IMG/VR virus record: IMGVR_UViG_3300008117_006248
Coordinates: 1 to 64,000 of that record
Length of the DNA stretch: 64,000 bases
Direction: 5' to 3' (one strand)
Source: a virus
The notes under the pieces: model-generated
Told to the model about the DNA's origin: nothing
Seen by the model: only the letters and a program-made list of their open reading frames with translations
Databases searched by the model: none
Position numbers and translations under genes: made by a program
Shown here: piece after piece, positions 2,570 through 9,423 of the stretch
Position numbering within the stretch: the first letter of the stretch is position 1
Layout of the letters: each line of letters begins with the position of its first letter

Positions 2570-3127
2570 ATGAACACGAATCTTTACTTTTTAATTCAAA
2601 AAAATTCAGACGGATCTATCACGATTCTAAATGGACCAGATTATTTGCCTATTACTTTCCTTAATGTTAGTAATTTTAATAATCTTGAAAAAGACGCGCC
2701 TCAATTACTAAAAAATCTAGATTGGCTAGACAGGCCCACGTTAAGTTTTTGGCAGGCTGTTATTGGAGTTAAGCCAGTAGGCGTTTTTAGTAAAAAAATT
2801 GTATCTGAAAATAATGTAAACCCTGAATCAGAAACAGTAAATGTTGTCTATATCGAAGTAGATTTAACACCTCAAGAACAAGAGGAAAAAAAACAACTTC
2901 TTAAAAATAGATACACCCCAGTAAGAGACTCTTGTTTGAAACTCACAGACTTCACTCAGTTAGCCGACGCTCCTATTTCCGAACAAGCTAGAATCGATTT
3001 TTCTAATTTCAGGCAACAGTTGAGAGCAATGTTTGATATTTCTGATTATAGTCAATTAGCTTGGCCTGCGATTCCTACGTCTGCTCCAAATATAACTATA
3101 CCACCATTTCCGCCAATAGAAAAATAA
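2570..3127 (+). CDS. Tail fibre assembly chaperone-like protein
   Basis: C-terminal RDSCLKLTDFTQLADAP...FRQQLRAM...WPAIP matches the Tfa/phage tail assembly chaperone pattern. Confidence 0.75.
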   Translation: MNTNLYFLIQKNSDGSITILNGPDYLPITFLNVSNFNNLEKDAPQLLKNLDWLDRPTLSFWQAVIGVKPVGVFSKKIVSENNVNPESETVNVVYIEVDLTPQEQEEKKQLLKNRYTPVRDSCLKLTDFTQLADAPISEQARIDFSNFRQQLRAMFDISDYSQLAWPAIPTSAPNITIPPFPPIEK

Positions 3128-3686: not shown

Positions 3687-3880
3687 AGATCTGAGTTTTC
3701 TTCTATTATTTTTTCTATTTGAGTTATTTCAAAAAGAATCTTACTCTTTAGACTCTTCAACTCATTAAGCACAGCGGCGGCTTGTTTTTTAGATTTGGCT
3801 TTTTCTAGTTTTTTTATAAGTCTGTCTGATTCTTTTTCATAAAACTCCGCCGTCTTGAGCATCATTTGCAAATGGTCCAT
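3683..3880 (-). CDS. Small coiled-coil hypothetical protein
   Basis: 65 aa, K/E/L-rich helical pattern. Confidence 0.55.
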   Translation of the reverse strand: MDHLQMMLKTAEFYEKESDRLIKKLEKAKSKKQAAAVLNELKSLKSKILFEITQIEKIIEENSDL

Positions 3881-3883
3881 ATA

Positions 3884-3913
3884 AAATGAAAGAGGGGAGC
3901 TTTCGCTCCCCTC
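3884..3913 (-). terminator. Rho-independent terminator
   Basis: On the minus strand GAGGGGAGC-GAAA-GCTCCCCTC then TTTCATTTT, just downstream of ORF 3925-4113. Confidence 0.85.
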
Positions 3914-3924
3914 AGTTTTGTATT

Positions 3925-4113
3925 TTAACGCTTACGTCGAGCCGCTCGCTTACTTAGGGTTTGTGGGTCAGATGCAGTTGCGAAACCGAATGCATTACGC
4001 GCAATACGCTTGGTGTCGGTTCGATGTTGGTTGATCTTAACAACCTTCTGGACATCAGTCACTGTTAGCCTACCGCAGTCAGACTCGGTAACCGTAATAG
4101 AGTACTTATTCAT
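3925..4113 (-). CDS. Small basic hypothetical protein (monocistronic)
   Basis: 62 aa with R/K-rich C-terminus; flanked by a TTGACT promoter (4145-4150) and its own terminator. Confidence 0.65.
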   Translation of the reverse strand: MNKYSITVTESDCGRLTVTDVQKVVKINQHRTDTKRIARNAFGFATASDPQTLSKRAARRKR

Positions 4114-7112: not shown

Positions 7113-7512
7113 CCTCGCCTCGCTTGGTTGAAGTTAGGTCGTTAGACTTTACAAAATTAACATGAGCGCATGGCTCAATTATTATTTGAGCAATTTTGTC
7201 TCCAGCTTTCACATTAAAATCAACATTGTTGTCGGTGTTATACAAAATAACACCAATATCGCCCCTGTAGTCAGAGTCTATTACACCGGCTAAAACGTCA
7301 ATTCCATTTTTATATGCCAGTCCAGATCTTGGAGCTATTCTTCCATAGTGGTTCATGGGAATGGCCATGCTGACGTTTGTCTTAATCAATGCCCTGCCAA
7401 GTCTGGGAATAATTGCGCTTTCAGCAGCATACAAATCGTATCCAGCAGAAAATGCAGTAGCTTGCGTAGGAATCTTGGCCAAGTCGCTTAACAGTTTGAT
7501 GTGTATGTCCAC
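7090..7512 (-). CDS. dut: dUTPase (trimeric)
   Basis: AGYDL, GRIAPRSGLA, AGVIDSDYRGDIGV, KIAQII, RGEGGYGHSG motifs. Confidence 0.97.
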   Translation of the reverse strand: MDIHIKLLSDLAKIPTQATAFSAGYDLYAAESAIIPRLGRALIKTNVSMAIPMNHYGRIAPRSGLAYKNGIDVLAGVIDSDYRGDIGVILYNTDNNVDFNVKAGDKIAQIIIEPCAHVNFVKSNDLTSTKRGEGGYGHSG

Positions 7513-7518
7513 GACGAT

Positions 7519-7583
7519 ATTATGCAGCTATAGTAAAAAAAGTCAACTTAAAATTTGATTTTTTTACTTTTTGAGATCATATT
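7519..7583. promoter_or_regulatory. Divergent pair of leaderless sigma70-like promoters
   Basis: Minus: TTGACT(7546-41)-N16-CATAAT-N6-GTG(dut). Plus: TTGATT(7555-60)-N17-CATATT-N5-GTG(7589). Confidence 0.7.
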
Positions 7584-7588
7584 AAAGT

Positions 7589-7996
7589 GTGAACATCATT
7601 GAATGTTATCAGCTACTCAACGAGTACTTCAACAGCCGCAGTTGCTTCAATCTAAAGAAAAATAGGAAAGAAGTGATTTTGGTGTCTGACGATGAACCAT
7701 CGGAAAACGCGGCGCTTGTCTGCGCTCTGAGAGAAATGGAAAAAGCCAATGTGCTTCGCTCATGCGTTCTAGACGGCGAAGAATATTGGGTTTTAGTGAA
7801 GTCTCTTGAGTCCTTTTCTCAGACGATAGAAGTAAGCGGGCTGGTAGCCGCTGGCATAGCTTCTATTATTAATAATATGTGCCAAGAGTTAAACAGCGAG
7901 TCAGAGAAGTGCGACGTTTTAAATATTACAGAAAAGGATTTAAAGAATTTAATTTATATCGCTTCTAAGGCCACTCCAGACTCGCTTAAGAAATGA
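7589..7996 (+). CDS. Hypothetical protein, possible winged-helix
   Basis: ALREMEKANVLRSCVLDGEEYWVL resembles a wHTH recognition helix plus wing. Confidence 0.5.
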   Translation: MNIIECYQLLNEYFNSRSCFNLKKNRKEVILVSDDEPSENAALVCALREMEKANVLRSCVLDGEEYWVLVKSLESFSQTIEVSGLVAAGIASIINNMCQELNSESEKCDVLNITEKDLKNLIYIASKATPDSLKK

Positions 7997-7997
7997 T

Positions 7998-8025
7998 TTG
8001 ACTTTTCCAGAAAACAGGTCATAGT
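7998..8025 (+). promoter_or_regulatory. Sigma70-like promoter driving the non-coding RNA/sigma gene
   Basis: TTGACT-N16-CATAGT; the context GGTCATAGTCATCC nearly matches GGTCATAATCATCC before ATG 41018, predicting +1 near 8031. Confidence 0.7.
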
Positions 8026-8030
8026 CATCC

Positions 8031-8470
8031 AGACTGTTGTGCAGAGGTAACCTGAGCAAAACCATGCTCACTTAAGAATAAAATCTTATTTAAACTCGTA
8101 AGAGACAGCAAGCCCGTTGAAAGACGATAGGAAATTGGAGGAAACTCCAGCGTGCGTTCGGGAGAGGTCGCGTCGTAACTGAGTCCTATTTAAAACTACT
8201 AGAAACTTCATTCCTCTCAAAGGAAAAGGCGATGGTGGAACGTCTGAAAAAAAGTCGCTGCGCAAACAACAGTCTAGCATAGCCAAAAGTAGTCACTAGC
8301 TAAACGGACTCACTAAAGCCGGAGATGCGATGACTGATGTGGGTACTTTTGGGTGAATAATATCTTAGATAACAACATCTAAGCTGACCTACTATTGCTT
8401 AATAGCCAACTCAAGGAAAAGTTATAAGGCGATGGTGGAGAGGCAAAGTCTCTGTGGCAACACAGAGCAT
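8031..8470 (+). ncRNA. Candidate large structured RNA (unknown class) upstream of phage sigma factor
   Basis: Long-range helices 8031-40/8266-75, 8127-32/8184-89, 8283-91/8344-52; GNRA-capped hairpins at 8095-8104, 8115-26, 8135-50, 8157-66, 8450-67; further hairpins 8053-70, 8364-83, 8392-8405; no credible ORF. Confidence 0.7.
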
Positions 8471-8484
8471 TAAGGAAAAAGTTT

Positions 8485-9093
8485 ATGTCTAAATCAAAAT
8501 CTATTAAAGATCTTGATCTTGTTTTAGTTAATAAGATCAAAGATAATAACTGCAACGACAGTTTCGAAAAATTATCAGGTTCTTACGATAATTTTTATTT
8601 CTCTATCGCAAGAAAATATTCTCAAGCATTAAACAGAATGGGAATGAGCAAAGAAGAGATAAAGTCTGAAAAAGATTTTATTCTTTACAAAGCAATTCAG
8701 TCTTTTGATGCGAAGCAGAAAACGAAGTTTTCAACTTGGTTTTGCAACTGTGCGAGATATCATTTTCTTAATTACATTAATTCAAACAAAAAATACATCT
8801 TGAACGAGGGTTTAGGTGTTGATGTTTATATTAATAAAGATATCTTAACTGTAACAGATAAGAATAATGATTTATTTGATTATTTGTCTTCTCTTCTTTC
8901 TTCTTTCAAAGATCCTAGAGTTAATGAGGTATATAAATTAAGGTATTTTTCTAACACGGCTAAACCTGTTACATGGAATAAGATCGCTAAAAAACTAAAT
9001 ATAAGCACACAGACAGCAATCAACCTGCACGAAAAGGCTAGAGTTTTCCTAAAAAACAAGATTCTTAGTAAAAATTCTTTCGATTTGGTTTGA
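8485..9093 (+). CDS. Phage RNA polymerase sigma factor (sigma70 family, regions 2+4)
   Basis: LYKAIQSFDAKQKTKFSTW (region 2) and TWNKIAKKLNISTQTAINLH (region 4 HTH); AAGGA SD 8 nt upstream. Confidence 0.85.
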   Translation: MSKSKSIKDLDLVLVNKIKDNNCNDSFEKLSGSYDNFYFSIARKYSQALNRMGMSKEEIKSEKDFILYKAIQSFDAKQKTKFSTWFCNCARYHFLNYINSNKKYILNEGLGVDVYINKDILTVTDKNNDLFDYLSSLLSSFKDPRVNEVYKLRYFSNTAKPVTWNKIAKKLNISTQTAINLHEKARVFLKNKILSKNSFDLV

Positions 9094-9126
9094 CTTTTTG
9101 GTTTTTTGGGTCATAATGTGTTTAGC

Positions 9127-9423
9127 ATGAATGCTACCAAGACTGAAAACAAGTGGGATAACCGCGAACTGGGCGCCTTGTGGACGAAAGTCAGCAAGGA
9201 TAAATCACAGAAGTATATGACTGGTCATATTAACACCTCTTTGGAGGGAAAGATTGACATTGTCATTTTCTCGAACAAGGAAAAGAAAACCGATAAATCT
9301 CCAGATTTTCGGATTTATGCTTCTGATCGCTCGGACAAGCAAAAGGATCAGGCTAGCAAAACCTCTCCAGCACTTGCCCAAAAAGTGCAATCGGAGTCTG
9401 AGGATGACGACGGAGTTCTATAA
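9127..9423 (+). CDS. DUF736-like protein with acidic tail
   Basis: ELGALW..SK..YMTG.I....IVIF.N..K...SPDFRIY; promoter TTGACT(9090)-N16-CATAAT(9112) supports ATG 9127. Confidence 0.6.
   Translation: MNATKTENKWDNRELGALWTKVSKDKSQKYMTGHINTSLEGKIDIVIFSNKEKKTDKSPDFRIYASDRSDKQKDQASKTSPALAQKVQSESEDDDGVL

Follow-up and report, generated by a model that had tools for sequence, protein, structure and literature searches.

A ~410-nt pseudoknotted RNA with twin strands in uncultured aquatic phages

What does a phage keep in the non-coding stretch that precedes its own sigma factor gene? The question arose from a 64,000-nt window, which is the whole stretch of DNA that was analysed and comes from an uncultured lake phage (IMG/VR record IMGVR_UViG_3300008117_006248, positions 1 to 64,000). 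To our knowledge, large RNAs that adopt complex tertiary folds are rare, those that are understood are mostly ribozymes or ribosome-linked machines, and every new class of large folded RNA has so far opened new biology. Here, positions 7997-8484 of the window were found to contain the gene for a ~410-nt non-coding RNA encoded on the + strand. The locus comprises the following elements.

7589-7996, + strand: w135, a predicted winged-helix protein of 135 aa with a modelled C-terminal helical dimer interface
7998-8025, + strand: promoter of the RNA, with -35 box TTGACT (7998-8003), 16-nt spacer and -10 box CATAGT (8020-8025)
8031-8439, + strand: conserved core of the non-coding RNA (~410 nt), supported by nhmmer/blastn matches, fold z-score and covariation
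8472-8476, + strand: AAGGA, the Shine-Dalgarno sequence serving the sigma gene, spaced 8 nt from its ATG at 8485
8485-9093, + strand: phage sigma factor of 202 aa (Pfam Sigma70_r2 and phrog_351)

The first-pass annotation had described a promoter-driven RNA of ~440 nt in the only long intergenic gap of the genome. The gap is one of three ORF-free gaps of at least 200 nt within the window, when ORFs of at least 70 aa are considered. The length was also revised: matches of relatives obtained with nhmmer and blastn start at 8029-8043 and end at 8435-8484, and because the conserved part stops at about 8439, the RNA measures ~410 rather than ~440 nt. The stretch was further said to be GC-richer than its flanks, which is true with respect to the sigma gene (42.5% versus 28.9%) and to the window as a whole (35.3%), but hardly applies to the upstream gene (41.2%). 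The TTGACT-N16-CATAGT promoter is present as annotated, with a score of 9/12 in a promoter scan that was also run on four other loci (L025, L032, L058 and L120). Its -35 box is invariant in alignment A1, and a -35/-10 pair occurs 5-9 nt upstream of the first helix in 36 of 46 extracted flanks; seven of the ten flanks devoid of such a pair are, by our reading, cut inside the -35 box. As previously claimed, no terminator separates the RNA from the sigma gene, a scan having found nothing terminator-like on the + strand between 8031 and 8484. The sigma factor itself was recognized by PF04542 (Sigma70_r2; 26 bits for a cut-off of 24, E 7.9e-6) and phrog_351 (E 1.7e-10), together with a weak region 4-like HTH, and the Shine-Dalgarno sequence and 8-nt spacing noted earlier were found again. 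Contigs of four sequencing runs were compared with the window. Metatranscriptome contigs (three sets from three studies) cover only 9143-9403, corresponding to the gene after sigma, and are uninformative either way on the RNA; none of the RNA contigs falls on 8031-8484, and a contig of one run that is probably DNA covers 7951-8335. Transcription of the RNA, the position of its 3' end, and any partner or effect are treated below as predictions.

Folding energies point to a structured RNA encoded by one strand only. The minimum free energy (MFE) of the + strand is -127.5 kcal/mol, compared to -108.2 +/- 5.3 for shuffled sequences (z -3.62; 0 of 100 shuffles as good), and the 410-nt core alone reaches a z of -3.13. 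For the - strand, z is -0.77 and 22 of 100 shuffles folded as well. Only the + strand is thus more stable than its shuffles, and its fold can be described by the following elements.

8031-8044, + strand: 5' strand of P1/P1b, paired with 8258-8275 to close domain 1 as a two-part helix
8095-8104, + strand: P3 hairpin with a family-wide GUAA tetraloop
8106-8109, + strand: 5' strand of pseudoknot PK1, paired with 8383-8386
8113-8126, + strand: most conserved core, unpaired or in a short helix, with a CCGU..AAAGAC motif and invariant columns in alignment A3
8127-8189, + strand: P5 three-way subdomain, with P5 (8127-8132/8184-8189), P5a (8135-8150) and P5b/c (8151-8175)
8196-8239, + strand: module M1, with a 5' strand (8196-8208), an inner hairpin (8211-8224) and the 3' strand R1, or R-box (8226-8239)
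8253-8257, + strand: 5' strand of pseudoknot PK2, paired with 8331-8335 inside domain 2
8283-8352, + strand: domain 2, with P6 (9 bp), P6a, P6b and P6c
8364-8383, + strand: P7 hairpin, present in the window's clade and variable elsewhere
8389-8439, + strand: module M2, with a 5' strand (8389-8400) forming 12 bp with R2 (8427-8438)
8450-8467, + strand: clade-specific 3' hairpin with a GCAA loop and no T-run

Much of the architecture proposed by the first-pass annotation was recovered. The decamer pair that closes the first domain (8031-8040/8266-8275) is 100% complementary, and P1/P1b carries an A-rich bulge on its 3' side; the closing pair of the second domain was found between 8283-8296 and 8339-8352, and all the hairpins that had been named are part of the MFE fold. 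One helix had to be reassigned, since the CTATT/AATAG pairing is not conserved and the strand is instead engaged in the 12-bp helix with 8427-8438. Among the five GNRA tetraloops reported, GUAA (8098-8101) is family-wide and the other four are not: the GAAA loop at 8119-8122 has its closing C-G in 6 of 46 rows, and the GAAA loop at 8141-8144 and the GCAA loop at 8457-8460 are clade-specific. The two pseudoknots and the twin-strand feature described below had been overlooked.

Covariation across relatives is strong, as the first-pass annotation had proposed to verify. It supports P1, TGAGCA/TGCTCA, ATAGGA/TCCTAT, the GAAA hairpin, CCAAAAGTA/TACTTTTGG and CTTAGAT/ATCTAAG, with compensatory changes that are G-U-tolerant. 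RNAalifold recovered only 29 pairs from the broad alignment A3 because MAFFT misaligns P1, P2 and P7 between clades, and P1 was therefore tested by duplex energies between its two segments. After removal of L043, L044, L047 and L116, for which the anchor pattern failed, z was below -2 in 39 of 42 representatives, one of which (L073) has a misplaced anchor; pairs taken from the same genome averaged -17.9 kcal/mol and cross-genome pairs -11.1. The remaining helices were counted on a hand-written structure that was picked after viewing the pair tables and therefore leans towards well-aligned pairs: across 46 representatives, the 54 tested pairs are 93.3% paired, versus 81.4% when shuffled and 36-46% when slid, with none of 500 shuffles reaching the observed pairing, and 34 of the 54 co-vary, that is, are changed on both sides. 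The signal is unevenly distributed along the molecule. Twelve of the 13 pairs of domain 2 are changed on both sides (92.3% paired), and all four pairs of P5a co-vary (95.7% paired). The P5 subdomain displays compensatory changes in A1, P5 itself being poorly aligned in A3, and so does P7, which is gapped in about 18 of the 46 rows of A3. P3 shows no covariation, its pairs being retained in 42, 36 and 44 of 46 rows; in the 8113-8126 core, no pair other than the G-C and the U-A is universal (46/46); and the 3' hairpin at 8450-8467, which is absent from other clades, shows a single compensatory change, in L010.

Both long-range pseudoknots are paired in every representative. All four positions of PK1 are paired in 46/46 rows, with exchanges of pair types (AU 28/CG 18; AU 38/GC 4/GU 2/UA 2; CG 45/UA 1). 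In PK2, four positions are paired in 46/46 rows (GC 43/AU 3; CG 45/UA 1), and the fifth is paired in 40/46 rows with three pair types. In addition, 48 columns of the family alignment are invariant, including many at junctions. With two pseudoknots proven by covariation and 48 invariant positions, the ~410-nt RNA is a well-defined object.

Several lines of evidence support the view that this RNA represents a family that had not been described before and is carried by uncultured phages of aquatic habitats. The whole window yielded no match at gathering score in Rfam 15, which covers GOLLD, ROOL, OLE, HEARO, raiA, 6S and RNase P, and the tmRNA, group I/II intron, T-box and riboswitch models were likewise without match. 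When region 7500-9200 was searched in E-value mode, six sub-threshold matches of at most 23 bits were obtained for gathering scores of 40-208; ceN108 (8325-8400, 19.7 bits versus 50) was the sole one inside the RNA, the other five falling in flanking genes or in the upstream region. Ten diverse family members gave no Rfam match at E <=1. Database searches revealed the RNA in 27 of 34 viral loci anchored on the sigma gene, and in 92 of 92 viral and metagenome loci matched by pattern, from lakes and the sea. Among relatives, the non-coding stretch shares 75-95% DNA identity where the sigma factor shares 65-91% protein identity. Neither the window stretch nor a marine member matched cultured phages by blastn, nor did the sigma factor by tblastn, in searches from which near-identical records may be omitted. 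A search of 185,579 prokaryote genomes with a pattern specifying 20 bases, which a divergent cellular relative would escape, also returned no match. We found no description of this ~410-nt RNA in the literature. A survey of IMG/VR lists 8,495 candidate structured RNAs of 29-151 bases (PMC10690425), and fragments of the present RNA may be among them; the part of 10.64898/2026.09.22.753630 considered here covers other RNAs. ARAGORN detected no tRNA and no tmRNA in the 64-kb window. A self-splicing intron was rejected, the flanking genes being complete and separate and no intron model giving a match.

Could the locus be something other than an RNA gene? It might consist of small coding genes, such as a reverse-strand ORF or twin leader peptides, or of operator- or iteron-like repeats acting at the DNA level. 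The window indeed contains a 66-aa reverse ORF (8086-8286), whose conservation as a protein had been designated as the observation that would overturn the RNA. Yet in 45 of 46 rows all reverse frames of this segment contain a stop, and its length varies by non-multiples of 3; apart from the terminal stop, the frame is open only in the window and in the 99%-identical L075, and is already interrupted by an internal stop in L007 (95% identity). Together with the lack of Rfam match and the strong covariation, this agrees with the initial proposal of a new phage RNA class. Leader peptides are suggested by an ATG in each R-box, which by eye opens ORFs of 16 and 13 codons, but we counted 26 of 46 shared R-box strings devoid of ATG, and within the closest clade the frame is broken behind R1 by indels of 1 and 2 nt. 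The longest ORF has a median length of 43.5 codons and lacks conservation. DNA repeats would be in line with the exact 14-nt direct repeat described below, but the window holds only two exact copies of it. Given that only the + strand folds better than its shuffles and that the compensatory changes tolerate G-U, we regard these coding or DNA-level explanations as the least probable of all those considered.

An unusual feature of the family is a pair of twin strands. R1 (8226-8239) is an exact 14-nt direct repeat of 8426-8439, and the two R-boxes share an exact string of at least 10 nt in 44 of 46 rows. The shared string averages 14.1 nt, versus 7.2 nt between genomes and 5.4 nt after shuffling, and 29 distinct strings were found, identical within a genome and differing between genomes. 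The central letters of R1 track those of R2 even where R1 is unpaired in M1, and both copies carry the same extra A in L013. The two sites differ in their local structure, the one in M1 forming an internal loop and the one in M2 being fully helical. Along the RNA, the strands occur in the order 5'1, R1, 5'2, R2, 150-190 nt apart, and can by sequence pair alternatively, either as two local hairpins or as R1:5'2 plus 5'1:R2; since R1 and R2 are identical in sequence, the two schemes have equal helix energy. The R-box is not enriched in the window, where eight matches at up to 3 mismatches were found, nor are complementary target sites (45 versus 34.3 +/- 5.6 expected for a G-U-tolerant complement pattern). 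The concerted change of the twin strands is an unusual evolutionary signal that points to strand exchange or to one shared partner.

Two interchangeable pairing schemes of equal energy, with twins that are maintained and evolve in concert even where R1 is unpaired, would fit a dedicated cis-acting leader or switch heading a sigma (or dNMP kinase-sigma) operon. The pairing of the strands would be set by folding kinetics, a ligand or a protein, and the pairing state would decide translation or read-through of the next gene, thereby timing the early-to-late switch. Such a leader, which we hold possible if doubtful, is also consistent with the downstream organization. In most lineages, window included, the start of a co-oriented gene follows R2 at a distance of 6-70 nt, and no promoter or terminator is recognizable in between; R2 ends 6 nt ahead of the start codon in L101, and in the L019/L022 clade the ribosome-binding site lies, by eye, in a hairpin right behind R2. 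By eye also, no convincing promoter was seen between the RNA and the kinase-like gene in the marine clade. These short spacers confer a leader-like look on the RNA that speaks against a self-contained gene.

However, the identity of the gene behind the RNA varies: among 39 informative representatives, 22 have a sigma gene there and 17 a dNMP-kinase-like gene, and the RNA is not sigma-specific. Other elements also intervene in several lineages: in L025, the RNA is followed by tRNA-Gly, a promoter (TTGACA-N18-TATTAT) and only then the next gene; in L026 and L032, a promoter separates the RNA from the gene that follows; and the RNA of L058 is followed by a terminator-like hairpin with a T-run. 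In L120, where the RNA has an 11/12 promoter and is surrounded by an integrase, a PARG-like gene and a helicase, no co-oriented annotated gene follows it, and the locus has neither sigma nor w135. The conserved core stops at R2 and the 3' flank is clade-specific, leaving no conserved expression platform, and the leaders known to us are far smaller than ~410 nt with two pseudoknots. The cis switch on sigma translation put forward by the first-pass annotation is weakened accordingly, though a cis effect is possible in the window's clade, where nothing separates the RNA from sigma.

Two further explanations were considered. The RNA may be self-processing, a ribozyme cutting itself from the early transcript and freeing the downstream mRNA or, in L025, the tRNA directly behind it. 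A large pseudoknotted fold with invariant junction columns, predicted to be embedded in a longer transcript in most clades, would suit a catalyst, but no Rfam ribozyme family matches and no conserved sequence marks the would-be 3' cut site, making this improbable in our opinion. A 6S-like decoy or guide binding the host RNA polymerase or the phage sigma had also been suggested. Its appeal lies in the context, as early expression is predicted and most lineages have a sigma gene no more than 1.5 kb away; no 6S model matches, the fold is multibranched and pseudoknotted rather than a long hairpin with a central bubble, and L120 has no sigma at its locus. The decoy idea is left without support, and we consider it very improbable.

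The upstream gene, whose product the first-pass annotation had already mentioned as a possible associate, provides a candidate partner, and an inverted repeat is present in the DNA at 7532-7568. The w135 protein has no Pfam or PHROG family, and an AlphaFold2 model based on a 30-row alignment (pLDDT 86.7) displays an H-E-H-H-E-E order followed by helices. Foldseek placed MecI, MarR and small viral winged-helix proteins at the top, with weak E-values of 0.016 or worse. The homodimer model scored 0.54, versus 0.00 for the best control, with at least 62% of contacts in common between runs and pLDDT of at least 76; among proteins solved as one-chain pairs, 20 of 30 attain the dimer mark, compared with 1 of 23 solved as single chains, counts that are only a rough calibration because our own alignment was used for the dimer model. 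A search of the Protein Atlas with w135 gave scores of at most 0.83 and nothing usable. A w135 homolog precedes the RNA in 38 of 45 representatives, or 38 of the 41 with enough flank, a co-occurrence that may be plain synteny. An HMM search of the loci detected no w135 in L076, L099 and L120, three representatives in which the RNA is preceded by at least 1.6 kb of flank, so that w135 is not an obligatory partner; a search of the L058 record also found nothing.

Our preferred reading, to which we assign a probability of roughly 0.5, is that of a self-contained early phage RNA gene giving rise to a ribonucleoprotein or RNA-only particle, and acting in the window's clade also as the leader of the sigma mRNA. 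A host-type (sigma70-like) early promoter would drive the RNA, whose transcript would start at the first base of the closing helix. This two-part helix encloses a multibranch domain, followed by a second hairpin domain, and two long-range pseudoknots join the first domain to the second and to the linker. The folded particle would work as an RNA, alone or with protein, without being a device reserved for sigma. Both R-box helices might be equivalent docking sites for one dimeric partner, the winged-helix dimer w135 being the obvious candidate, or alternatively four interchangeable strands swapping partners. As there is no stop to transcription between the RNA and sigma in the window's clade, the sigma mRNA would there begin with the RNA as its 5' part, and the RNA could, as such, influence sigma.

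A bolder version, which strikes us as unlikely, pictures an early RNA machine whose four strands a, a', a, a' are selected to be identical, and which flips between two global folds or swaps strands between copies. Swapping between copies might produce homo-oligomers, RNA-only or bridged by winged-helix dimers, an idea modelled on the ROOL and GOLLD assemblies. If true, an RNA machine would be at work during the first minutes of an infection, alongside the sigma factor that the phage encodes. As for the self-contained RNA gene, an effect on sigma expression, if there is one, would give phages a new way to time their transcription programme. The family is widespread among uncultured phages of lakes and the sea, and the size of the RNA suits SHAPE, cryo-EM and reporter work.

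This RNA and its neighbouring protein can be compared with several known systems. Regarding the candidate partner, MecI/BlaI and MarR dimers resemble w135 in combining an N-terminal winged helix with C-terminal helices, modelled in w135 as the dimer interface, although the similarity is limited to a TM of ~0.4 and ~10% identity. With 6S RNA, the window RNA shares the theme of an RNA tied to sigma or polymerase choice, but it has another architecture. GOLLD and ROOL, which are encoded in prophages and phages and for which some covarying pairs proved to be intermolecular (PMC12286853), are likewise large, intricate phage-encoded RNAs of unassigned function backed by covariation. The window RNA differs from both in matching neither Rfam model, and from GOLLD in size, many GOLLD members exceeding 800 nt (PMC12286853). 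It also stands behind an early promoter, in a regulatory region adjoining the sigma gene, and not near tRNA islands; of 33 loci, L025 alone has a tRNA adjoining the RNA, and the arrays of tRNAs in L044, L051 and L087 are kilobases off.

Four-segment attenuators and riboswitch platforms rely on four strands and two pairing schemes, which the sequence of the window RNA would also allow, and have a gene behind, as here in most lineages. In the window RNA, by contrast, a folded pseudoknotted domain lies between the widely spaced strands, and there is no conserved leader peptide and no match to a known aptamer; the RNA stands alone in some lineages, and its downstream genes lack the constancy across members that is the rule for riboswitches. 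Finally, autoregulatory leaders such as that of ribosomal protein L20 contain two look-alike sites for one protein. The sites of the window RNA differ from these in being set in unlike structures, but in both cases the two sites stay alike, which in the leaders goes with the same partner reading both; a partner shared by the two sites would likewise account for R1 and R2 changing in concert.

The record from which the window derives is an uncultured virus genome of 88.7 kb, in which a 488-nt stretch without conserved ORF separates a 135-aa ORF from a sigma factor gene. The first-pass annotation had described this stretch as the only long intergenic gap, whereas the window has three internal ORF-free gaps of at least 200 nt, including this one. 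The stretch bearing the RNA is richer in GC than the whole window (42.5% vs 35.3%). A second gap (3687-4009, 323 nt, no ORF of at least 70 aa) has no Rfam match at gathering score. The features of the locus are as follows:

7589-7996, + strand: w135 ORF, 135 aa
7998-8025: promoter TTGACT-N16-CATAGT
8031-8439, + strand: candidate RNA, containing modules M1 (8196-8239) and M2 (8389-8439)
8450-8467: clade-specific hairpin, followed by the Shine-Dalgarno sequence of the sigma gene
8485-9093: sigma factor gene, 202 aa (Pfam Sigma70_r2, E 7.9e-6; also phrog_351)

Comparative analyses indicate that 8031-8439 is a conserved RNA that does not belong to a known family. With the sigma protein as bait, 34 viral loci were fetched, 27 of which contain a homologue of the RNA stretch. 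Searching with a conserved-core pattern recovered 34 viral loci, many of them the same contigs as in the sigma-anchored set, and 58 loci in metagenomes; the samples were freshwater and marine, and nhmmer found full homologues in all 92. Altogether there are 105 full-length copies, which comprise 58 distinct cores and, at no more than 96% identity, 45 representatives. The pattern had no match in 185,579 prokaryote species (one genome each), and neither the RNA nor the sigma protein was matched in 50,697 GenBank phage records. The gap DNA is conserved as much as or more than the neighbouring protein, with 85% identity vs 70% amino-acid identity for sigma, and 76-77% where sigma reaches 65-70%. 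No reading frame is conserved across relatives, the segment differs in length by numbers not divisible by three, and the longest ORF per sequence has a median of 43.5 codons; the reverse ORF 8086-8286, whose conservation as a protein would argue against an RNA, is kept only in the window and one 99%-identical contig. Readings in which the stretch is coding, or acts at the DNA level, are very improbable.

Folding of the + strand gave a minimum energy better than 100 of 100 dinucleotide shuffles (z -3.62; core alone, z -3.13), vs a z of -0.77 for the minus strand, with 22 of 100 shuffles equally good. Every element listed from the sequence is present, including the perfect decamer pair 8031-8040/8266-8275, the second-domain pair 8283-8296/8339-8352 and, in the minimum-energy fold, all listed hairpins. 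The proposed CTATT/AATAG helix is not conserved, its strand forming a 12-bp helix with 8427-8438, and among the five GNRA tetraloops GUAA is family-wide and the others are not. RNAalifold predicted 95 pairs from 15 close sequences, 32 with compensatory changes. For 46 representatives, pairing was counted on a structure written by hand (54 pairs, 16 helices): 93.3% of cells were paired vs 81.4% after shuffling (0/500 shuffles as high), although this structure was picked after the per-pair tables had been viewed, which favours well-aligned helices. Sliding the partner by 1-3 columns lowered pairing to 36-46%, and 34 of the 54 pairs had changes on both sides. Because MAFFT misaligns P1, the closing helix of domain 1, this helix was tested by duplex energy, with z < -2 in 39/42 representatives; its 5' and 3' segments averaged -17.9 kcal/mol when taken from the same genome vs -11.1 from different genomes. 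Two long-range pairings had been missed. PK1 (8106-8109/8383-8386) pairs at each of its four positions in 46/46 rows, with AU/CG, GC, GU and UA alternatives. PK2 (8253-8257/8331-8335) pairs at four positions in 46/46 rows, GC being replaced by AU three times and CG by UA once. Together they connect domain 1 with both the linker and the inside of domain 2.

M1 and M2 are related and built alike: the 5' strand is rich in pyrimidines, the 3' strand (R-box) is rich in purines, and the loop holds a conserved purine-rich motif. The two R-boxes, R1 (8226-8239) and R2 (8426-8439), are identical over 14 nt in the window. Although 29 different R-box strings occur among the 46 representatives, in 44/46 (exceptions L018 and L099) the two R-boxes of one genome are identical over a run of at least 10 nt, the shared string averaging 14.1 nt within genomes vs 7.2 between genomes and 5.4 for shuffles. 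The 5' strands change along with them. An ATG is missing from 26 of the 46 R-boxes, which contradicts a reading of the two as twin leader peptides. In M2 every R-box position is paired, whereas the middle letters of the M1 R-box lie opposite an invariant internal loop of GAAA type and nevertheless match those of M2. Since independent helices would diverge, one of two explanations must hold: either the four strands would be interchangeable, whether as two hairpins or as a nested exchange with the same helix energy, in one molecule or across molecules, or a single co-evolving partner would read both R-boxes. No complementary target set for the R-box was found in the window.

The promoter is present as proposed, and conservation begins at its predicted +1 and stops near 8439. 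In the window's clade neither promoter nor terminator was seen between RNA and sigma gene. By eye, the sequence following R2 in this clade (8443-8456) repeats that following R1 (8251-8263), so the 3' tail might reach back to the closing helix; 8449-8454 could pair with 8041-8046 in its 5' strand (by eye; not conserved in L013). Within the marine clade (L041, L044, L087 and others), a stretch of ca. 20 nt located 10-30 nt past R2 is conserved, with no obvious promoter.

The next gene is sigma in 22/39 informative representatives and a dNMP-kinase-like gene (phrog_139) in 17/39, followed by sigma in 14 of these 17. In five loci the context marks the RNA as its own unit: L025 has a tRNA-Gly(GCC) directly behind it (2935-3010), then an 11-of-12 promoter ahead of the kinase-like gene; L026 and L032 have a promoter before the next start codon; L058 carries a T-run and terminator-like hairpin; and in L120 (3945-11599) the RNA, preceded by a near-consensus (11-of-12) promoter, lies among an integrase, a PARG-like macro-domain protein and a DEAD/ResIII helicase, sigma and w135 being absent. 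This unrelated neighbourhood suggests that the RNA gene is movable as a cassette. The window has no tRNAs; in the marine clade, tRNA arrays occur a few kb from the RNA (eight genes in L044, 9293-11981; four in L051, 10565-11557).

Large, knotted RNA folds are typical of ribozymes and RNPs rather than leaders. Going from the demonstrated conservation of sequence and structure to transcription, ends, partner and effect, we infer, with a probability of about one half, that the RNA is a self-contained gene expressed early, whose product would act as a folded particle and use the twin helices as its working surface, and which would double as leader of the sigma mRNA in the window's clade. A stand-alone gene is supported by the conservation of the promoter, by conservation that ends sharply at R2, by the change of downstream gene between lineages, by the five lineages in which the context is a tRNA, a promoter, a terminator or a foreign neighbourhood, and by a size and knotted fold better suited to ribozymes or RNPs than to leaders. 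A cis switch dedicated to the downstream operon is possible but on balance unlikely; it would fit the closeness of the next gene, which in most clades follows after a short spacer without promoter, the hairpin sequestering the Shine-Dalgarno sequence directly past R2 in one clade (by eye) and the degenerate four-strand design. A self-processing ribozyme is improbable, and a 6S-like decoy very improbable.

A w135 homologue precedes the RNA in 38/45 representatives; of the seven others, four are cut by contig ends, and in L076, L099 and L120 a flank of 1.6 kb or more contains none. w135 is likewise missing from four distinct sigma loci that have no RNA. The protein matched no Pfam or PHROG family. 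In line with its earlier description as wHTH-like, it was modelled as a winged helix followed by helices (pLDDT 86.7), with consistent but weak Foldseek matches to MecI, MarR and small viral winged-helix proteins (best E 0.016). A homodimer model through residues 76-134 scored 0.54 (best control 0.00), with contacts agreeing between runs at 62% or more and pLDDT of at least 76; the mark was reached by 20/30 proteins solved as one-chain pairs and 1/23 solved as single chains, counts that apply only roughly as a custom alignment was used. The model supports self-binding, without showing it. Between the divergent promoters ahead of the w135 gene, 7532-7568 forms a perfect inverted repeat of 10 bp around a 17-nt spacer, a plausible DNA operator for the dimer. 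Beyond sigma, a DUF736-like gene (9106-9423, Pfam E 5e-6) is covered at 9143-9403 by metatranscriptome contigs from three studies, all starting at 9143, ca. 25 nt past a promoter TTGACT-N16-CATAAT; it looks like an abundantly expressed early gene. No transcript contig covered the RNA, a result that counts neither for nor against its transcription.

The claim of novelty held: no Rfam 15 family matched any part of the window at gathering score. Six sub-threshold matches appeared in E-value mode, one of them within the RNA (ceN108, 8325-8400, 19.7 bits vs a gathering score of 50), and ten diverse relatives gave nothing at E ≤1. A literature search found no description of the RNA, the supplementary candidate tables of a 2023 IMG/VR survey lying outside the comparison; that survey gives structured-RNA candidates of up to 151 bases (PMC10690425), some of which might overlap parts of the RNA. 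The nearest known RNAs are GOLLD and ROOL, likewise large, ornate, phage-borne orphan RNAs, which differ in their models, size and tRNA-island context (PMC12286853). With attenuators, the likeness is limited to the four exchangeable strands.
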